Below, piece by piece: positions 4,326 through 62,409 of a DNA stretch of 64,000 nucleotides. Below the pieces are notes generated by a model. That model saw only the letters and a program-made list of their open reading frames with translations. It ran no database searches and was not told where the DNA came from. This stretch comes from Lama glama (lineage: Eukaryota). Position 1 is the stretch's first letter. Every line of letters starts with the position of its first letter. A program made the translations under genes and the position numbers. The DNA lies in contig CM052816.1 in the NCBI GenBank assembly GCA_028534125.1, forward strand, positions 3,536,001 through 3,600,000. Direction: 5' to 3'.

Positions 4326-4963
4326 TGATGCAGGAAAAATGGATGTCGGGCGTGAGGAGGGCCGAGTCCCAGGTCTCGGTTGAGGCCCTGGGATGTGCCC
4401 TGCCAAGTATGGGTCCTTGGCTTCATGCAGGAAAGAATTCAAGTGCGAGCCACCGTTGAGTTAAGGTAGATTTATTGAGAGAGATGCACACTGCATAAAG
4501 TCTAGGGCAAAAGAAAGGCAAGGAAAGAGGTGTGGGAACTGGGTGCTCAGGTTAAAGTAAAAGTAGGTACACACTCCATAGACAGAGTGCGGGCCATCTC
4601 CATATGGGAGAGAGAGCGCAGAGGGCCACTAGGCATGGGTGCTGTCACTTTTTATGGTCTCAGTAGCTTCACAGGCCTACAGGTGGGATCAATCCAACTG
4701 CCCTGGGGAAGGGGCTGGGAGGCCCGGGGATGGGGCCACCGCCCATTCTTTGGCCTTTTGCGGTTAGCCTTGAGGCTGTCATGGCGCCTGCAGGCATGTT
4801 ATTTGATCTCGCTGTTAAAATGAGCATATAATGAAGCTCAAGGTCTACTAGAAGTTAAACCTCTTAATCCTAAAGGCCCACTAGGAGGTGAATCTTCCAT
4901 TTTGGTGTTAAATTGCTGTCATTCCTTGAGTGGCTGTGGCCTGCCCCCTTCCCTCCTGTCTCA
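4326..4963 (-). mobile_element. Full-length ERV1-type solo LTR
   Basis: The - strand reads TGAGACAGGAGGG...TTTTTCCTGCATCA (TG...CA termini), with a TATA-like CATAAAAA near 4650-4657 and AATAAA at 4471-4476. No clean 4-bp TSD is visible. Confidence 0.85.
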
Positions 4964-6566: not shown

Positions 6567-6628
6567 CCGGCACGCGGGAGGGGTTCCAGCCCCAGCCCCA
6601 GCCCCAGCCAGTTCAGAGTCTGTTTATT

Positions 6629-6762
6629 TTATTTATTTAGTTTTTTGGTCGGGGGTGGGAAGTAATTAGGTTTGTTTGTTTATTTTTTAGTGGAGGTCCT
6701 GGGGATGGAACCCAGGCCCTTGCGCATGCATGCGCTCTACCCCTGAGCTACACCCTCCCCAC
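6629..6762 (-). mobile_element. Vic-1-type camelid tRNA-derived SINE with perfect 16-bp TSD
   Basis: tRNA-Ala-like head on - strand (ggggagggtgtagctcaggggtagagcgcatgc...ctgggttccatccccaggacctcca) and cctaattac tail. TCAGAGTCTGTTTATT at 6613-6628 and 6763-6778. Confidence 0.92.
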
Positions 6763-6902
6763 TCAGAGTCTGTTTATTGAACCTTGTTGGCAGGACCTGC
6801 ATGGTCCCCTGGTGAGATCAGAGCCTGTGCGCTGGGAGAACTGGAAAGCCGAAACTGGGGGCTGTCCTACCTATCGCAGGAGCCACGTGAATATCCCTCG
6901 AT

Positions 6903-8740: not shown

Positions 8741-9430
8741 GTGTCTACTTAGTTGTTTTTTTAACTTTTTTTATTGTTATAGTCATTTTACAATGTTGTG
8801 TCAAATTCCAGTGTAGAGCACAATTTTTCAGTTATACATGAACATACATATATTCATTGTCTTTTTTTTTTTTTTGCTGTGAGCTACCACAAGAGCTTGT
8901 ATATATTGCCCTGTGCTATACAGTATAATCTTGTTTATCTGTTCTACATTTTGAAATCCCAGTCTGTCCCTTCCTACCCACCACCCCCTTGGCAACCACA
9001 AGTTTGTATTCTATGTCTATGAGTCTGTTTCTGTTTTGTATTTTTTTTTTTAAGATTCCACATATGAGTGATCTCCTGTGGTATTTTTCTTTCTCTCTCT
9101 GGCTTANNNNNNNNNNNNNNNNNNNNNNNNNNNNNNNNNNNNNNNNNNNNNNNNNNNNNNNNNNNNNNNNNNNNNNNNNNNNNNNNNNNNNNNNNNNNNN
9201 NNNNNNTGATGGACATTTAGGCTGTCTCCATGTCTTGGCTATTGTAAATAGTGCTGCTATAAACACTGGGGTGCAGGTGTCATCCTGAAGTAGGGTTCCT
9301 TCTGGATACAAGCCCAGGAGTGGGATTCCTGGGTCATATGGTAAGTCTATTCCTAGTCTTTTGAGGAATCTCCGTACTGTTTCCCACAGTGGCTGCACCA
9401 AACTGCATTCCCACCAGCAGTGTAGGAGGG
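8741..9430 (-). mobile_element. Young camelid-type L1 3' fragment (contains a 100-N gap)
   Basis: ORF2 C-terminal remnant ([31 protein letters not shown]...CTPVFIAALFTIAKTWRQPKCP). Closely similar to 61606-62409. Imperfect TSD cattttgtct (8724) / cattttatct (9431). Confidence 0.92.
9107..9206. other. Assembly gap (100 N)
   Basis: Run of N. Confidence 1.
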
Positions 9431-15181: not shown

Positions 15182-15220
15182 GGAGCTGCCATGTTGGTGC
15201 AAGTTCTGAAGAAGCTCCAG
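15182..15220 (+). other. Candidate exon (39 nt if internal, or the 3' end of a first exon) with ATG and strong donor
   Basis: cttcccttcctgcag|GGAGCTGCCATGTTGGTGCAAGTTCTGAAGAAGCTCCAG|gtaagg. ATG at 15191 in a GCC context gives MLVQVLKKLQ; protein not recognised. Confidence 0.5.
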
Positions 15221-15964
15221 GTAAGGCACCGTTGCTTTTGGCTCCTCCTGCGGTTTAACTCTACAGTCTCTCGGACGCTGTGGCTTAGTGATGTTGGTTG
15301 CGTGGAATCAGGGCAAAATCTCGGATGGAGGCTTTGGGGGCGTCCTCGCTGCTCTGTACAAGCCAACTGAGTGTGTCGGACCGGCACACTATTAATACCC
15401 GCCCTTCCCCATCTCTGCCCACCTTCCACCCTACCAAGAAAACCTAGTTGAAGCTTACGGACATTTGTTCTGAGAATTTCATTATCATCCCGCCATTCAT
15501 AATTCACCACTTAACCTCTGTGGATGGCGGGAAGTGCGATTTTGAACATTCTCACTGGAATAAAATCACAGGGTTAATCAGCTCTGCTCTTTGTGGGTAA
15601 TTGGAAAAATGGTCTCCCGGTAACAAGCCATTAGCAGAAAACTTTTTTTTTTTTTTAACCAATTTCCATAGAAGAGAAGTCAAGTAGTGACTGGAATAAT
15701 TTCGTTTCGAGTTTGGTTTCCCCTGATTGTGCACAACTGGGGCAAACCTGCGGGCACTGCTGAGGTTGACCGCTTAGGATGTAGAAACAGCGTTCAGCCA
15801 GAGCTATCTGAGCTACACGCAAGCGTCCGGGCCCCTCTCCTGGCTGAAAGAGTGGACTCTGTTGCGCGTTTTTCTTCTTTGCTGACCTGAGAGGATTGTG
15901 GTGCGCCCAATACCAGCGTGCACAGATCAGTGTTGAACGGTGCTCGGCTGAGAAGCCATCATTT

Positions 15965-16149
15965 TTATTGATTTATTTTGAGGAAAGGTGGGTTTGTCTG
16001 GAGAGAGAGGTGCACTGCATGGAGTGTTGGCCGTTTCCGAAGGCGGAAGGCCACGAGGTGTGGGGGATGGGCGCACAGGTGGAGGCAGCAGTAGACACGC
16101 ACGCCATAGGCTGAGCGCGGGCCGTCTCCCGAGAGGCGGGAGCGGGAAA
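15965..16149 (-). mobile_element. Retroposed ERV1-LTR R-region copy with poly(A) remnant and TSD
   Basis: Colinear with ~4455-4627 of the solo LTR. T-rich tail at 15962-15979. Flanked by ggctgagaagccatcattt (15946-15964) and ggccgagaagccctgattt (16150-16168). Confidence 0.75.
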
Positions 16150-16959
16150 GGCCGAGAAGCCCTGATTTAATAACGCACCGCAAATTGGTAGGCGTTTAGG
16201 AAGTTTCCCAGTATCTTTAACGCGCAGTTTTAAGGGGCGGAGTGGGAGAAGTGGAAGGAAGCTCGTGCTTCCCCGAAGCTAGATGAACCTGATCAGGCTC
16301 CAACTTTGGGGTGTCCTTGAGTCTTCTAGAACCTTCTACGGAGAGGAGCTGTTTCTCCCAAACTGGGGGCTGTGAAGGCAGAGGGGAACCAAGAAGGCTC
16401 TTGTGGGGGCAGAGGAATGAACCACCAGCTTTGAAGTTCTGGGAGGTGGGCTGACGGGGCGCTCTCGTGGGGTTGAGGGCCGCCGCCCTTGCTTGGCTGG
16501 CGGCGTTCGTGAGCAGGCAGCGCCTTCTCCTCGGGAGAGGCCGGAGGGGATCGGAGTCCCCTAGCAACTGGCTGGCACTGCAGCCAAGCAACCCAAGTAC
16601 GACGGGAAAGAGTTTGCTGAGGGAGGGAGGCTGGGAATACATAAAGCCGTTTCCAGGCTTGGACCACTGAGCAGGGCTGCTCCAAAGCGCCATGTGCCTT
16701 GTGGTTTTTTTTTTTTTTTTTTGCAGGAGGTTACATAATGTTTAGTTTTGCAGATGAATGTGCTCTGTTTCTATACCTTATATAGAGTTAAAGGGGTCTG
16801 GAGCCTGGTGGGAATTCAGTGACTTTTAGCTGATTCTCGGGTTCTGTGTTTCTGATACAAGTTCACCCTCGTGTCCTGCTGCTGCTGCTGCAAACAGCTC
16901 TGTTCCAAATGCCGTTCTTGGAAGCCAGCGTGTTCCAAACAGCATCTTCTCCTCTTGCT

Positions 16960-28740: not shown

Positions 28741-28789
28741 TTACAATCGATCTTAGGCAAAAGGCCGAGAAGCGATGGACTTGATTTTT

Positions 28790-31356
28790 TTTTAATTGAA
28801 GTAGAGTTAATTTGCAATGCTGTATCAATTTCTGGTGTGCAGCATAATAGTTTAGTGATACATATACATATATTCATTTTCATAATCTTTTTAGGTTACT
28901 GCATGATACTGAGTATAGATCCTTTTGCTATACAGAATAAACTTGTTTATTATTGTTTATTTATATATGTTAGTATCTGCAAATCTCGAATTCCCGGTTT
29001 ATCCCTTCCCACCTCCTAACTCCCGTGGTAACCGTAAGTTTGTTCTCTACGTCTGTGAGTCTCTTTCTATTTTGTAAATAAGTTTGTCTTATTTTTTTTT
29101 AGATTCCACATAAAAGTGATATCATATCATATTTTTCTTCCTCTTTCTGCCTTATTTCACTTAGAATGATGATCTCCAGGTCCATCCATGTTGCTGCAAA
29201 CGGCTGAGTAGTATTCCATTGTATAAATATACCACAACCTCTTTCTCCATTATCTGTCAGTGGACATTTCTGTTGTTTCCATGTCTTGGCTATTGTAAAT
29301 ATTTCTGCTGTGAACATAGGGGTGCATGTATGTTTTTGAATTGAAGTTCCCTCTGGATATATTCCCAAGATTGGGATTACTGGATCATATGGTAATAATA
29401 CGGTACCATATCATTCCATGAATGGTAATGGTATGATGTGGTAATGGTAATTACCAAAGTGGTAAATACCAAATTGTTCTATTTTTAGTCTTTTGAGGAA
29501 TCTCCATACTGTTTTCTATAATGGTTGCACCAAACTACATTCCAACCAGGATTGTAGGAGGGTTCCCTTTTCTCCACACCCTCTCCAGCATTTATTCTTT
29601 GTGGACTTTTGAATGATGGCCATTCTGACTAGTGTGAGGTAATATCTCATTGTAGTTTTGATTTGCATTTCTCTTTTAATTAGCGATACTGAGCATTTTT
29701 TCATGAGCCTTTTGTTCATTTGTGTGTCTTCATTGGAGAATTACTTGTTTAGGGCTTCTGTCCATTTTTGGATTGAGTTGTTTGTTTTGTTATTAAGTTT
29801 TATGAGATGTTTATACATTCTGGAAATTAAACCTTTGTCTGTTGCATTATTTACAAATATTTTCTCCCATTCTGTAGGTTGTCATTTTGTTTTGCTTATG
29901 GTTTCCTTCGCTGTGCAAGTTTCTAAGTTTAATTAGGTCCCACTTACTTATTTTTGCTTTTACTTCTATTGCCTGGATAGATTGCCCTAGGAGAACATTG
30001 CTGAGTTTTATGTCAGAATAATTTGCCTATGTTTTCTTCTGAGAGGTTTATAGTGTCTTGTCCTATGTTTAAGTCTTTAAGCTATTTTGAGTTTATTTTT
30101 GTGTATGGTGTGAGGGAATGTCTTAACGTCATTGATTTACATGCAGCTATCCAGTTATCTCAACACCATTTGCTGAAGAGACTCTCTTTACTCCATTGTG
30201 TATTCTTGACTCTTTTGTCAAAGATTAATTGACCAAAAGTCTGTGGGTTTATTTCTGGGCTCTCTGTTCCAGTTATCCATATGTCTGTTTTTGTACCAAT
30301 ACCATGCTATTTTGATTGTAGCTCTGTAGTATTATCTGAAGTCTGGGAGGGTTATTCCTCCAGCTTCATGCTTTTTCTTCAGTATTGCTTTGGCAATTCT
30401 GGGTCTTTTGTGATTCCATATAAATTTTAGGATTATTTGTTCTAGTTGTGTGAAAAATGGCCTGGGTAATTTTATAGGGATGAAATCTGTAGCTTGCTTT
30501 GGAGAGTATGGCCATTTTAACAGTAGTAATTTTTCCAATCCAAGAACTTGGGAAATCTTTCCATTTCTGCAAGTATTCCTTAATTTCCTTAGTCAGTGTT
30601 TTGTAGTTCACCTGTAAGCCTTTCACTTCTTGGTCAGATTTATTCCTAAGTAATTTATTTTTTGGATGTGATTTTAAAAGGGATTGTTTCTTCACCTTCC
30701 TTTTCTGATACTTCATTGTTAATGTAAAGCAATACAACTGATTTCTGTATGTTAATCTTGTATCCTGCTACCTTGTCGAATTATTTTATCAGCTCTAGTA
30801 GTTTTTATGTGGAGATTTTAGGGTTTTCTATATATAGTATTATGTGATCTGCATATAGTGACAGTTTTATCTCTTCTCTTCCAATTTGGATGTCTCTCTC
30901 TCTCTTTTTTTTTAATTGTGTAATTGCTGTGGCTAGGACTTCCAATATTATATTGAATAGAAGTGGTGAGAATGGGCGTCTTTGTCTTGTCCTGGATTTT
31001 AGTGGGAAGGCTTTCAACTTTTCAGTATTTTGCTGGCTGTAGATTTGTCCTAAATAGCTTTTATTATGTTGAGATATGTTCCCTCTATACCCGCTTTGTT
31101 TAGAGTTTTTATTGTAAATGGATGTTGAATTTTATCAAATGCTTTTTCTTTCTCTATTGAGATGATCATGTGGTTTTTGTCCTTTTGTGGATGTGGTGTA
31201 TCACAGTGATTGATTTGCGTATATTGAGCCACCCTTATGTCCCTGGGATGAACCCAACTTGATCATGATGTATAATCTTTTTTTTAATGTATTGTTGGAT
31301 TCTTTTGCTCATATTTTGTTGAGGATTTTTGCATCTATATTCATCAGTGGTATTGG
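28790..31356 (-). mobile_element. ~2.6-kb 5'-truncated L1 (ORF2 RT and C-terminus, 3'UTR) with TSD; ORF disrupted
   Basis: Frame-shifted ORF2 pieces ([73 protein letters not shown]). tggacttgattttt (28776-28789) / tggacttgtttttt (31357-31370). Confidence 0.95.
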
Positions 31357-35829: not shown

Positions 35830-35960
35830 TCTTTCTCCTTCTTCTTTTGGAGGGGGATGTAATGAGGTTGGTATTTATTCTAATGGAGGTACTGGGGATT
35901 GAACCCAGAACCTTGAGCATACCAAGCATGTGCACTCTACCGCTCGGCTATACCCTCTCC
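35830..35960 (-). mobile_element. Vic-1-type SINE
   Basis: aatggaggtactggggattgaacccagaaccttgagcataccaagcatgtgcactctaccgctcggctataccctc. Confidence 0.9.
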
Positions 35961-36769
35961 GTCCCAAGTCGGCTTAACCTTTTTAATGGCTGCACGATAT
36001 TACAGTATATGATTGTGCTGTCCTGTGCATAACTCATTCCTCATTAGTGAATGTTCAGGTTGTTTCAAATTTTTTGTTAGAAATCATACTGCAGCCTTAG
36101 CTATTCGTCTTTACACGTGTGAGGACATACATAGTGGGATAAATTGCTTGAATTATATAATGGCTACAACAAAGGGCCTGAGAATGTTAGATTGTTAGGG
36201 TTGTAGCCAAACTGTCCCCCAAAAAGACTGTCCCAGTTGACACTTGCACGAGCAATCACATAGGAAAGCCTGTTTCTTATACCCTTACCAACACTTTGTT
36301 TTCAGAACTTTTTAGTATCTGTTAATAGAACAAAATGATAGTTCACAGTTTTGAATGAAATTTATTTGGTTTTGACTGTGCATTTGTTTAAAAGCCTATT
36401 TGCATTTTTTTTTTCCTGCCAAGTGCCTATCCATGCTACTTCCACTTTCGGAGGAGTGAGCCTCTTCTTCTGACACTGGTTTTGAGGAACTTTGTGTGCA
36501 CGGAGGAGTTTCTCTGTACTGTCACGTGTTTCCTTACCAGCTTTGTCTTTTTATTGTGTATGGTTTTGGAATTTTTATGTACTCATAGCTATTCATCTTT
36601 TCCTTTGAGGCTTTTGGGTTATATATTTTGCTTTAGCTTTGCCCACTCTGATGTTATTTTTTTTTAATGCAATGTTTTCTTTGACTTACACAATTTTATT
36701 TTTTTCACCTTTTGATCCACTGGATTTTTTAAAAATTTTTATTGTTTTTGTGGGTTTTTTAAAGCTGTT

Positions 36770-36907
36770 TAGGGGGAGCAAATAGGTTTATTAATTTTTT
36801 TAAATTTACTTTTTACTTTTTTTTTTTTTTAACACAAACCCTGGGGATTGAACCCAGGACCTCATGCATGCTAAGCACGTGCTCTACAGCTGAGCTACAC
36901 CGTCCCC
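36770..36907 (-). mobile_element. Vic-1-type SINE
   Basis: ctggggattgaacccaggacctcatgcatgctaagcacgtgctctacagctgagctacaccgtcccc. Confidence 0.9.
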
Positions 36908-38415: not shown

Positions 38416-38540
38416 GAGGGAGGGAGGGAGGGAGGGTACAGCTCAGTGGTAAAGTGTATGCCTAGCTTGCACAAAGTCCTGGGTTCAATCCCTAGTACCT
38501 CTGTTAAAAATAAATAAATAAAAACATAATTATTTTTTTA
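38416..38540 (+). mobile_element. Vic-1-type SINE (only + strand copy) with (GGGA)n-expanded 5' end
   Basis: gggagggtacagctcagtggtaaagtgtatgcctagcttgcacaaagtcctgggttcaatccctagtacctc followed by (taaa)n. Imperfect TSD aagaaggatttg / aaaaaggatctg. Confidence 0.9.
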
Positions 38541-39429: not shown

Positions 39430-39568
39430 TGCTTGCTTGCTTTATTTATTTATTTATTTTATAGTAGAGGGGAGGCAATTAGGTTTTATTTCTTTACTTT
39501 AATGGAGGTACTGGGGATTGAACCCAGGATCTTACACATTCTAGGCACTCAGTCTGTCACTCCTCCCC
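39430..39568 (-). mobile_element. Vic-1-type SINE (5' end damaged)
   Basis: ggggaggcaattaggtttt...aatggaggtactggggattgaacccaggatcttacacattctaggcac. Confidence 0.88.
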
Positions 39569-50562: not shown

Positions 50563-51062
50563 NNNNNNNNNNNNNNNNNNNNNNNNNNNNNNNNNNNNNN
50601 NNNNNNNNNNNNNNNNNNNNNNNNNNNNNNNNNNNNNNNNNNNNNNNNNNNNNNNNNNNNNNNNNNNNNNNNNNNNNNNNNNNNNNNNNNNNNNNNNNNN
50701 NNNNNNNNNNNNNNNNNNNNNNNNNNNNNNNNNNNNNNNNNNNNNNNNNNNNNNNNNNNNNNNNNNNNNNNNNNNNNNNNNNNNNNNNNNNNNNNNNNNN
50801 NNNNNNNNNNNNNNNNNNNNNNNNNNNNNNNNNNNNNNNNNNNNNNNNNNNNNNNNNNNNNNNNNNNNNNNNNNNNNNNNNNNNNNNNNNNNNNNNNNNN
50901 NNNNNNNNNNNNNNNNNNNNNNNNNNNNNNNNNNNNNNNNNNNNNNNNNNNNNNNNNNNNNNNNNNNNNNNNNNNNNNNNNNNNNNNNNNNNNNNNNNNN
51001 NNNNNNNNNNNNNNNNNNNNNNNNNNNNNNNNNNNNNNNNNNNNNNNNNNNNNNNNNNNNNN
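50563..51062. other. Assembly gap (500 N)
   Basis: Run of N. Confidence 1.
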
Positions 51063-52167: not shown

Positions 52168-52545
52168 CTTTTCTTGTGGTAAAATATATATAACATAAAA
52201 TCTGCCATTTCAACCATTTTTTAAGTGTACAGTTCAGTGACATTAACAACACATAAAGTTGTACACCGTCATCAGTAACGACTTCCAAAATGTTCATCAC
52301 CCCAAATAGAAGCTTTTAAGCAGTAACTCTCATTTTTTCCCTTTTCCCAGTCCTGTGAAACCTTGATTTTTTTTGGTGGAGGAGGTAATTGGGTCTACTT
52401 AATTATTTACTTTTTAGAGGAGGTACTAGGGATTGAACCCAGGACCTGGTGCATGCTAAGCATGTGCTCTACCACTTGAGCTATACCTTCCCCCTCCGTC
52501 AGCCCTGGGAAATCCTGAAGCTAGTTTCTGTCTCTGTGAATTTTT
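52168..52545 (-). mobile_element. L1MB-type 3' end hosting a Vic-1 SINE
   Basis: ttgtggtaaaatatatataacataaaatctgccattt...taagtgtacagttcagtgacattaa. Confidence 0.85.
52368..52495 (-). mobile_element. Vic-1-type SINE
   Basis: ggaggtaattggg...gaggaggtactagggattgaacccaggacctggtgcatgctaagcatgtgctctaccacttgagctatacc. Degenerate TSD cagtcctgtgaaaccttga / cagccctgggaaatcctga. Confidence 0.9.
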
Positions 52546-57186: not shown

Positions 57187-57337
57187 CTTTTTTTTTAATT
57201 TATCACATCGGAGGAGGGGAGGTAATTAGGTTTATTTATTTATTTACTCATTTATTTTTAAGGGAGGTACAGGGGATCGAACCCAGGACCTCGTGCATGT
57301 TAAGCATGCACTCTAACTGCTGAGCTATGCCCTCCCA
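57187..57337 (-). mobile_element. Vic-1-type SINE
   Basis: gggggaggtaattaggtttatttatt...ggaggtacaggggatcgaacccaggacctcgtgcatgttaagcatgcactctaactgctgagctatgccctccc. Confidence 0.92.
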
Positions 57338-58559
57338 ACTTCCTTCAACAGCGGCAACAAAAAGGCTGCAGAAGCATGATGAAGCATGCTTTCCCTTGGC
57401 AACATGTCGGGGAAACAATGGGGAAAGAGTAACGGGCCAGGGTGTTACATGCCAGCAAGGTGATGGGGTCCTGGCACAGGTGGGTCTTCAGATTTTTCGA
57501 ACGAAGTCGATCTGGTGTGTTCTGTGAATTTTTCTCATATAATTTGACTCAGACTTAAAGAAGAAAGCATTTGTGGGTTAGATATGGAACTTGTAGAATA
57601 ACAGGCAACAATCTCTGAAGTAAAATGTGGGAAGTGTTCTCTTCGGACGTGGATTCTTTTGCCTACATTATCCAGTCTCAGTTAATTGATCAGTTCCAGC
57701 AGGATGAGGGAAGGTCTCTTGGGAGATGCACAGGGTTTACGTGTCTTTAGGGACTGAAACCCTTTTTTCTTCGGAAAAAGAAATGTTCTGTACGGCTGTT
57801 GGAGGGAATGGTTTAGATCAGAAAGGTTAAACATCTAGACTCGACCTCACTTGATCCAGGAGAGCCTGGGGAAGTTCATTGAGTACCACGTGCTCAGTGC
57901 TGCATAACTTTCTGTTGGGACTGTGCTCGGGCAGGAGCCATGGGAGGGACAGCATCTTCAGGGCTCTCCAACCCTGAGGATTTGCCCCTTTAAGGACTGG
58001 CATCCTAAAGGGATGAAGGAGCTGTTCTCGGGCTCACAGAGATGGTACAGGCTTTAGAGAGAATGTACTCCAGACACCTTCATCAGACACAGACGGTAGG
58101 AAGCACAGATGGGGCAGTGCCTACTCAAAGCCACACAGCTGGTGGCCGAGGACTCCTGATCCCAGCTCTCCTACGTCCTGGTCTGGCATTGCCACTGGGA
58201 GCTGGTGAGGACGAGCCTGTTGCCCAGCTGTTGGACAGCACCGCCAGCTGTGTGTGTGCAAATAGCCATGGTCAGGAGGCAAAAGAGAACAGTTATATAA
58301 AAGGAGGAGTAGGCTCTGGAAGAAAGAACCCATTTAGCTTTAGAAATAGTACTTATATCTAGAAAAGAACAGCCCCTGGAACAAGTACCCAGGAAGCTGA
58401 ATAGTTCATTGTTTTCGGAAACATTTGAGTTTGGAAATCAGTGGATTCATTGTGTTCTCCGCCTGCATTTCTCTGGTGTATTGGTATTTACTTAGAGTCC
58501 TCCTGGAGTCAGCAAAGGGGGAAAATACTCGGCTGTCATAATAATCTGCTGGGTAAATA

Positions 58560-59631: not shown

Positions 59632-59747
59632 TTTTTTTTTGGTTGGGGGAAGATTAAGTTTATTTATTTATTGGAGGTACTGGGGATTGAACCCAGGACT
59701 TTCTGCATGTTAGGCATGCACTCTACCACTGAGCTATACCCTTTCCC
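59632..59747 (-). mobile_element. Vic-1-type SINE
   Basis: tggaggtactggggattgaacccaggactttctgcatgttaggcatgcactctaccactgagctataccc. Degenerate TSD tatagaaagtctt / tctagaacgtcct. Confidence 0.92.
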
Positions 59748-61605
59748 TCTAGAACGTCCTGAAATTTAGTAGTTTAAGTTGTTGAAATTTATCTTTTCTC
59801 AAGATTTTCATAGCTGGGCTAGATCTTTTATATTTTAAGGAAATTTAGTACCCTCTTGTCAATTTCTGCACACACACACACACAAACACACACACAGAAA
59901 CCTGTAAGGATTTTGATAGTGATTGCACTGATTTTATACCTTATTTTGGGAGGGAGGGTAATTGATATCTTAAGAATAATGTCTTGTAATTTATGAATAT
60001 GGAATATATCTACTAAATGGATTTTTAAATATTAACCTTGCATTGCTGAGATAAAGCTCACTTGGTCATTATATATTATCCTTTTTCATACAGTGCTCTA
60101 TTCTATTCGCTGATGTTGTTTAAGGGGTTTTATATCTCTATTTAGTTCTTTTCCTATAAAAAATGTTGGACGTTGATATCGGGAAAATGCTGGCCTCACA
60201 CCAGGCATGGGGATAGTTTTCTCTCTGGTCTCTGAATGACTCTGTAAAATTGGTATTATTCCTCTGCATGAGGGTTTGGTAGAGTTACCACTGAAGCTAT
60301 CTTGTCAGGAATTTACTTTGTGGAATGGTTTTAACTTACAGATTCTAAATCTTCTGATACAGAAATACTTAGTTTTTCTTCTTGTGTCCATTCTGGTAAG
60401 ATGCGTTTTCAAGCACTTCGTTCATTTCATCTAGCTGCTCAAATGTATTGGCATAACATTGTTCATAATCTCTTGTTTATCTTTTGATGTCTGTAGTGAT
60501 GTCCCCTTTTCCCCCTGATAGTCACATTTTTAATTTTATCTTTTTTCTTGATGAGTCTTGCAAGGAAGTTAAGTTTTAATAATTTTTTCAAAGAATTCGT
60601 TTTTTACCTTATTGATTTTCTCTTTTCTATTTCATTGATTTCTGCTCTTCATTTCCACGTCCCCCCCCCAATTTTATTGTTAGATTCATGAGAAGGAAGC
60701 TTAAATAATTGATTTGAAATGTGTTTTTAATATACTCAATGAAAGCTGTAAGATTTCCTCTAAACTCTGCTTTAGATCAATCCCACAAATTTTGACATGT
60801 TGAATTTTCATTGTTTTTCCTTCCAAGTTTTACGGACTTTAAATATTATTTCTTCTTTAACTCACGGGTTATTTAGAAATATATTATTTAATTTTCAAGC
60901 ATTTGGAGATTTTCTAGCTGTCTTTATACATTGATTCCTGGTTCAATTCTATTACGGGCAGGCAACTTTTTTGTTTCTTTCATTGCTTTTAAACTTTTGA
61001 GACCTGCTCTACATAGTGACGTATAATCTACTTTGGAAAATATTACATGTGCCCTTGAAAAGACCGTGTATTCTGAAGTTGTTGTTTGTCATATTTAATA
61101 CATATCTATTCGGTAAAATTGGCTAGTGGTATTGGTCAAACTCTTCTTGGCCTATAGTGAACATTACTGAATACTTTTGTTAAGTTGATTAACTGCTAGT
61201 TTACAGAGATATGTTAATACCTCCAGCTTTGTGAATGTATCTTTCTCTTCTTAGTTCCATCAAATCTAGCTTTGATTTCTGCTCCATGCATTTGGAAGTG
61301 ATGCTGTTATTGGCATATGTACTTGGAATGATACCTTCTTGATTAACCCACTGTTGTGTTATTATGAAATTCTCCTTTATCTCTAATAATACTCCATGTT
61401 TTGAAGTCTACTTTGTCTGATATTTACATAGTCACACAAGCTTTAACAATTAAGAGTGTATTGCATATTTTTTCATTCCTTTTGCTTTCAACCTATCTGT
61501 GCATTTATATTTAAAGTGTGTCTTATAAACAAAATATAGTTGTTATTTTATTTTTTCCAGTCTGTCTGGAAAACCTGTCTGCCAGATTGTCTGACAGTCT
61601 GTCTT

Positions 61606-62409
61606 TTTTTTAAAACATTTTTTATTGATTTATAATAATTTTACAACGTTGTGTCAGATTCCAGTGTGGAGCACAATTCTTCAGTTATACATGAACATAT
61701 ATATATATATTCATTGTCACATTTTTTTCTTTGTGAGCTACCATAAGATCTTGTATATATTTCCCTGTGCTATACAGTATAATCTTATTTATCTATTCTA
61801 CATTTTGAAACCCCAGTCTATCCCTTCCCACCTCCTGCCCCCTAGACAACCACAAGTTTGTATTCTGTCTATGAGTTTGTTTCTGTTTTGTATTTATGGT
61901 TTGTTTGTTTGTTTGTTTTTTATTTTAGATTCTACATATGAGCAATCTCATATAGTATTTTTCTTTCTCTTTCTGGCTTACTTCACTTAGAATGACATTC
62001 TCCAGGAGCATCCATGTTGCTGCAAATGGCGTTATGTTGTCAGTTTTTATGGCTGAGTAGTATTCCATTGTATAAATATACCACCTCTTCTTTATCCAGT
62101 CATCCGTTGATGGACATTTAGGCTGTCTCCATGTGTTGGCTATTGTAAATAGTGCTGCTATGAACATTGGGGTGCAGGTGTCATTTTGAAGTAGGGTTCC
62201 TTCTGGATATGTGCCCAGGAGAGGGATTCCTGGGTCCTATGGTAAGTCTATTCCTATTTTTTGAGGAATCTTCATACTGTTTTCCACAGTGGCTGCACCA
62301 AACTGCTTTCCCACCAGCAGTGTAGGAGGGTTCCCCTTTCTCCACAGCCTCTCCGGCATTTGTCATTTGTAGATTTTTGAATGATGGCTATTCTGACTGG
62401 TGTGAGGTG
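61606..62409 (-). mobile_element. Young camelid-type L1 3' fragment with perfect 13-bp TSD
   Basis: ORF2 C-terminus (MFIAALFTIANTWRQPKCPSTDDWIKKRWYIYTMEYYSAIK). GACAGTCTGTCTT at 61593-61605 and 62410-62422. Confidence 0.95.

Follow-up and report, generated by a model that had tools for sequence, protein, structure and literature searches.

An old copy of the R region alone of an ERV1-type LTR, very probably made by L1

How could the R region of a long terminal repeat (LTR) come to stand by itself in a genome, and does such a copy belong to a family? The question is raised by a 185-base R-only LTR copy, the A-rich tail included, on the - strand at 15965-16149 of the window, i.e. the whole stretch of 64,000 nt that was analysed. 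A sequence-only reading had proposed that a short LTR RNA was retroposed here by L1, and that a SINE-like family might lie behind it. The locus was compared at 80% likeness with four public runs, X1 and X5 (DNA), and X15 and X17 (RNA). The element proves to be genuine and old; it is an ERV1 LTR copy of R only, made by L1, and represents an unusual form of a known by-product.

Anatomy of the element and of the reference LTR

A solo ERV1-type LTR at 4326-4963 (- strand) was used as the reference. It has TG..CA ends, but its flanks (GCTA and GAGT) form no matching 4-bp duplication; this absence may reflect decay, an end that was misplaced, or two insertions that recombined. The LTR contains a TATA-like motif (CATAAAAA, 4656-4649, - strand) and a poly(A) signal AATAAA (4476-4471, - strand). 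Transcription starts about 30 nt from a TATA box, which places the predicted LTR start near 4625-4626. We take this LTR to be a MER41-like ERV1, and the parent of the R sequence is probably an LTR of this type. In the available text of one study (PMC9435751), the MER41-like LTR lineage is dated to the cetartiodactyl ancestor, and consensus sequences of Vicugna pacos are named. The MER41-like LTRs are U3-R-U5 units made by integrase, whereas the element here has no U3 or U5 and carries L1 hallmarks. The terms MER41 and solo do not occur in the available part of a camelid repeat survey (PMC8605555).

Local alignment of window positions 15978-16164 with 4456-4637 gave 125 identities, 56 mismatches, and 7 gap letters in 188 columns; the score is 106, and the maximum reached by 300 shuffles is 37. 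For R alone (15978-16153 against 4456-4627 of the solo LTR), the score is 303, against a maximum of 107 in 200 dinucleotide shuffles. The colinearity of 15978-16149 with about 4455-4627 that had been claimed from the letters is thus borne out. The R-region copy at 15978-16149 (- strand) is about 68-70% alike to LTR 4456-4623, and is shifted towards G/C. Parts of the element are matched more closely by other loci, and the earlier caution that the source need not be the copy at 4326 was right.

The ends of the element coincide with features of the LTR. The 5' end corresponds to LTR 4623 by the repeat boundary, or to 4627 if a shared GGCC is counted, in either case no more than about 3 nt from the start that the TATA-like box predicts. 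The 3' end corresponds to LTR 4456, i.e. 15 nt past the AATAAA and near a CA, and is followed by the A-rich tail. These positions match the ends given in the earlier reading, past the TATA-like box and about 15 nt after the AATAAA. An LTR-family contig in X17 aligns to 16154, and then continues into the TATA-like motif (judged by eye). The poly(A) signal of the element is eroded, and reads GACAAA at 15993-15998 (- strand) where the LTR has AATAAA. The homology does end where it was said to end relative to the LTR's signal, but the element's own AATAAA has been lost; the AATAAA motifs at 15964-15977 belong to the tail, not to R.

R also contains an internal duplication (16022-16142, - strand), in which 16022-16049 resembles 16113-16142 at an offset of about 83-91 nt. 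The LTR R carries the same duplication at an 83-nt offset (4482-4582). In contigs of X1 and X5, loose ends at 16093 lead straight into an R end (by eye), which suggests that there is an LTR subfamily with a single unit and a shorter R.

The element is flanked by direct repeats at 15946-15964 (its 3' side) and 16150-16168 (its 5' side), which match at 16 of 19 positions, and the match ends on both sides. A match of 16/19 or better occurred in 1 of 295 random position pairs, even with a search of +/-20 on each side. We regard these repeats as the target-site duplication. In X15, record 9 spans 15946-15964 with no change there among the differences listed; in the other repeat, X15 and X17 differ from the window at 16164 and 16166, so that the match there falls to 15/19. 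The first 4 nt of the right repeat (GGCC, 16150-16153) are common to LTR 4624-4627, and form a microhomology at the junction. A degraded A-rich tail (- strand) is read at 15965-15977, its borders with the duplication and the R end being uncertain by 2-3 nt. An L1 endonuclease-type site, ATTT/AA, is located at 16165-16170 on the + strand, as required for an insertion on the - strand; it agrees with the L1 nick consensus TTTT/AA at 5 of 6 positions. The A tail, the 16/19 repeats, and the ATTT/AA end, all noticed before, are real and lie exactly at the junctions. It is established that a tail, a long duplication, such a nick, and 5' microhomology together indicate L1 target-primed reverse transcription, and the insertion of the R-only sequence by this process is very probable.

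No LTR homology was found beyond the element. The LTR U5 against the left flank gave P=0.51-0.58, the LTR U3 against the right flank gave P=0.16, and none of five junction-anchored extensions was significant (P from 0.10 to 1.0). Homology past either direct repeat had been named as a sign against an L1 insertion; the homology extends 4-5 nt into the right repeat and stops within it. These few nucleotides, and 7 nt beside the LTR R end that resemble the end of the left repeat in a permissive alignment, might suggest that the element is what remains of a solo LTR after decay or deletion, or a patch at the DNA level, with a coincidental tail and repeats. However, the anchored extension at the left repeat is not significant (P=0.23), and the duplication, tail, and nick are placed exactly at both junctions. 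Between the repeats there is a single R, the U5, internal, and U3 parts of the viral RNA being absent; the U3-R-U5 order with TG..CA ends and a 4-6 bp duplication, which marks a solo LTR made by integrase, is not present. A decayed LTR is hardly credible, and was rejected because neither the flanks nor the anchored extensions hold U3 or U5 homology.

Age, base composition, and folding

X1 and X5 each contain one near-identical contig across the whole stretch, and may be close to the source of the window. X15 and X17 represent a relative about 95% alike to the window. Both element junctions are present in X15 (records 9 and 16), and the right junction is present in X17 (record 23). No joint, the signature of an empty site, was found in any of the four runs: the element is spanned in X1 and X5, and is present in X15 and X17. 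Since both junctions occur in a relative about 95% alike, the insertion predates the split from this relative, and is old. The split is probably that between the South American and the Old World camelids, because the SINEs of the window look camelid. In X15 and X17, the cover by contigs is equally even over the flanks and over the element, which gives no sign of transcription either way, and gaps inside the element are uninformative. Across fourteen DNA runs from five organisms, 0.88-0.96 of the sampled window words were present.

The element has 65% GC and 13 CpG, whereas its LTR counterpart has 47% GC and 2 CpG. A/T in the LTR is G/C in the element at 35 positions, and the reverse is found at 7 (p=1.5e-5); the skew is polarised against one LTR copy, in which CpG decay accounts for part of it. 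Without the CpG-type changes (4 of the 35), the skew is still 31 vs 7. Among control repeat pairs in the window, none of seven is more lopsided than 9:3, with small counts. Inside the element, five alignable differences separate the window from the relative, and three of them are A/T to G/C gains in the window alone. The poly(A) signal is GATAAA in X15, which has kept the A at 15996, and GACAAA in the window. These two observations show that the drift continued after the insertion. Over 15500-16600, at 20 of the 37 differences from X15 the window has G/C where the relative has A/T (8 the reverse, unpolarised, among the differences listed, 3 of 40 being set aside because X15 lacks them); this pattern fits a local G/C bias.

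The probable causes of the drift are GC-biased gene conversion and a shielding of the CpGs from decay; the drift eroded the AATAAA and created the CpGs and hairpins. The element is the regional CpG peak; its O/E is 0.95-1.04 when measured over 200 nt from 16000 and from 16100. It had been described as sitting inside a promoter-like CpG region; the CpG peak there is formed by the element itself.

The - strand of the element folds better than its shuffles (z = -2.82), whereas the LTR R does not (z = -0.02). Among 13 neighbouring segments, the one over the 3' half scores lowest (z = -3.41). The main hairpin, at about 16029-16054, contributes much of the fold signal; it is broken in X15, the contig of which leaves at 16045 into an LTR-like variant. 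The hairpin therefore looks recent and local, and a conserved RNA structure was rejected. We read the CpG richness and the structure as products of local G/C-biased change, not as marks of a master gene.

Copy number and the question of a family

The interval 15944-16014 takes in both the tail junction and the R end, and its depth in X1 and X5 equals that of the locus's own contig. No other locus at least 80% alike over this interval was found in either of the two whole-genome DNA runs, among the matches listed; the comparison lists 32 of its 65 records and all but 13 loose ends, and sees likeness of at least 80% only, so that siblings of the family average escape it (the window's own LTR is about 68% alike), and it is limited by contigs that break inside repeats. 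The other X1 and X5 matches, among those listed, are pieces of 35-58 nt within 16015-16146, and their loose ends mostly lead into LTR-type sequence (by eye). The summed depth at 16018-16091 is high in all four runs; it is made of short LTR-family pieces, and is not a copy number. Within the window, no second R copy was found by BLAST or nhmmer. A family motif scan gave no hits in viral contigs or prokaryote genomes, and a BLAST search of a phage collection with the LTR gave no match; these collections are poor in mammalian DNA and silent on copy number. The same kind of scan in metagenomes gave none, and then two with a shorter motif; both were rejected as chance 19-mers with no further homology.

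One contig deserves separate mention. X5 record 31 matches 16100-16146, and then departs from the LTR family at about the predicted start site. Beyond the departure it runs for 845 nt, the first 30 letters of which are unlike U3, and its 3' part lies outside the contig. This record may be a second copy beginning at the R start, either R-only or longer, or merely a rearranged LTR.

The element shows no features of a Pol III-transcribed SINE. No tRNA, 7SL, or 5S head was identified, as none of the six Rfam hits in the window (gathering threshold) falls at 15946-16168. No Pol III A or B box was found at up to 1 mismatch, a weak test by SINEBase's own account. There is no TTTT run in the element or in the 265 nt downstream. 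An R-only copy without the U3 promoter would not readily reproduce itself. The best explanation is that only a few recognisable copies exist at most, of which the element is one, and that it is not a self-propagating SINE.

The folding of the - strand and of the 3' half, and one candidate second copy, X5 record 31, might suggest an undescribed family of SINE-like elements that stem from a structured, G/C-rich master copy of their own. Against it stand the depth over 15944-16014, which is that of the own contig only, the continuation of the short matches at other loci mostly into LTR-type sequence, the lack of head, boxes, and TTTT run, and the break of the main hairpin in X15. We consider such a master copy very unlikely. 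The idea of a SINE-like family, as it had been put forward, is not supported by the sequences compared, with no sibling of at least 80% likeness over 15944-16014 in two whole-genome runs, and with no tRNA, 7SL, or 5S head or Pol III box.

A hidden camelid class might also be imagined, in which tens to hundreds of R-only retrocopies all run from the LTR start to the poly(A) site; we think this doubtful. It is equally doubtful that such a class would have been fed by solo-LTR promoters, its members being pasted by L1 after the internal duplication had made R about 175 nt long. The single hint of a second copy for it comes from X5 record 31. If the class were real, the starts and poly(A) sites of the LTRs could be read from its copies as from a fossil map, and L1 would have repeatedly mobilised a second ERV1 family, this one outside the primates; repeat annotation would conceal the copies as 'LTR fragments'.

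Proposed origin and known systems

We lean towards reading the element as an old, fixed, promoterless processed copy of a short RNA that ran from the LTR start to its poly(A) site. An ERV1-family LTR, either solo or a 5' LTR whose transcription stopped early, would start Pol II transcription at the U3/R border. The RNA would be cleaved and polyadenylated at the LTR's own signal about 175 nt on. The L1 ORF2p would nick the target at TTT/AA and prime on the poly(A) tail; reverse transcription would reach the 5' end of the RNA, and joining via the GGCC microhomology would leave the 19-nt duplication. The inserted copy would later drift towards G/C and lose its AATAAA. According to the available text of PMC10760643, LTR-initiated transcription starts at R, and terminates efficiently at a nearby poly(A) signal. 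In the part available of PMC3694450, the poly(A) site of the HIV 5' LTR is suppressed by a downstream splice donor, and MoMLV is prone to premature polyadenylation; a solo LTR would presumably be without such a viral splice donor. Other poly(A) RNAs are described as mobilised by L1 in the available text of PMC5753468. The earlier proposal that L1 retroposed a short RNA is upheld for an L1-type R-only insertion, by the ends, tail, duplication, and nick and by the absence of U3 and U5; the start-to-poly(A) RNA itself is what these features would suggest.

Two routes absent from that proposal give the same product, and neither needs an R-only RNA: an R-R collapse or template jump of the HERV-W type, and a chance 5' truncation. 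In the first, L1 would have made a full R-U5-internal-U3-R-poly(A) copy that later underwent an R-R deletion, or the L1 reverse transcriptase would have switched templates during copying, leaving the 3' R for the 5' R. Both variants would yield exactly R, tail, and duplication, and a single sequence reads the same for an R-only RNA as for the R-R collapse of a longer copy. HERV-W processed pseudogenes show R-U5 and U3-R ends, poly(A), TT/AAAA, and duplications of 5-15 nt in the available text of PMC5016936; there, R is about 70-90 nt, and the R of about 175 nt here would offer a longer substrate for recombination. X5 record 31, which departs at the predicted start with its 3' part unseen, is as expected of a longer processed copy. 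However, two steps are required, the relative has the short form at both junctions, and no full-length processed copy of this ERV family was seen in the contigs available (X1, X5, X15, and X17). Moreover, solo LTRs usually exceed proviruses, by 2.3-3 times for ERV-W in two monkeys (available text of PMC6995185). An origin by collapse or jump seems unlikely.

In the second route, the element would be a 5'-truncated retrocopy of a long RNA, viral or read-through, that ended at the LTR poly(A) site, and the break near the R start would be due to chance. Pieces of 0-0.5 kb were the commonest HERV-W class in one earlier data set (PMC5016936, in the part available). The GGCC microhomology could fix the break point, and the element was singled out for looking exact. 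However, chance alone would place the break this close (about 3 nt) to the predicted start in something of the order of 1% of copies (a rough estimate, not from data), and a second contig, X5 record 31, breaks at about the same place. We regard this route as distinctly improbable.

SVA and SINE-R have an LTR-derived 3' end with a poly(A) signal and are mobilised by L1; they are composites with hexamer, Alu-like, and VNTR parts, and form a true amplified family. The element resembles them in its LTR-derived 3' end and its mobilisation by L1, but consists of the LTR R alone. HERV-W processed pseudogenes are the closest described system, on which the two papers named next also cite Pavlicek et al. 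2002. Their number is given as 135 copies in the available text of Grandi et al. 2016 (PMC5016936). HERV-W is termed the sole HERV group mobilised by L1 in a review (Grandi & Tramontano 2017, PMC5537654, as far as its available text goes), and platyrrhine ERV-W is described as having no processed pseudogenes in the available part of PMC6995185. Like the HERV-W processed pseudogenes (PMC5016936, same text), the element derives from an ERV1 RNA, runs from R start to R end with poly(A), has a TT/AAAA-type site (ATTT/AA) and a long duplication, and lacks a U3 promoter. Its 5' end lies at the predicted R start with U3 missing, and its 3' end lies at the R end with U5 missing and a tail added. Unlike them, it has a single R without U5, internal, or U3 parts, and thus lacks the R-U5-internal-U3-R colinearity; its duplication is 19 nt, beyond the HERV-W range; and it comes from a different ERV family and host order, with one proven copy here. 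The element works like a HERV-W processed pseudogene without being the full form.

The primate retro-DNAs, in the available text of PMC11195612, are pieces of another mobile-element class retroposed by L1, with a long duplication, TT/AAAA, often a tail, and a low copy number; the element is like them in these respects. Twenty-two cases in promoters are given for them. They have no end hotspot and need host transcription, whereas both ends of the element match signals predicted for the LTR itself, its promoter and its poly(A) signal. Compared with SINEs as defined in the available part of SINEBase (PMC3531059), the element is likewise short, non-coding, A-tailed, and LINE-dependent; it differs in having no tRNA, 7SL, or 5S head (60% or more identity), no Pol III boxes, and no evidence of 100 copies. 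A literature search, limited to text available outside Repbase, Dfam, and most subscription papers, gave no description of an LTR-derived SINE or an R-only LTR retrocopy, as far as the search listings show.

Even as a single copy, the element is a clean fossil of an LTR start-to-poly(A) unit, and suggests that L1 in the germline can use as substrates the short RNAs that solo LTRs should produce. It also represents an inserted repeat that was turned into the CpG peak of its neighbourhood via G/C-biased change. If there were many copies, L1 mobilisation of ERV RNA would not be peculiar to HERV-W, some annotated 'LTR fragments' would be retrocopies, and solo LTRs would be able to seed SINE-like sequence without Pol III.

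In the neighbourhood, 284 of the 309 ORFs of at least 62 aa were compared with Pfam (the 25 left out lie mostly in known repeats), and no host gene was identified; the matches are a piece of L1 reverse transcriptase and one sub-threshold DUF only. Patterns for KRAB and zinc fingers gave no match. A moderately CpG-rich segment at 15185-15225 carries two features: at 15195, on the - strand, a YY1-like motif with an ATG, and near 15220, on the + strand, an ATG with a splice-donor-like CAG/GTAAG after it. Judged from these motifs, it is possibly a promoter or first exon of a putative gene. Assembly gaps are located at 9107-9206 (100 N) and 50563-51062 (500 N). L1 fragments lie on the - strand at 28781-31262, 8750-9430, and 61605-62408, with the reverse-transcriptase piece at 31053-31262. 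The window also contains eight copies of a tRNA-derived SINE, six of them with Rfam tRNA hits, at 6628-6763, 35842-35965, 36810-36907, 38420-38538, 39441-39561, 52381-52500, 57188-57340, and 59634-59749; these are presumably of the camelid Vic-1 type.
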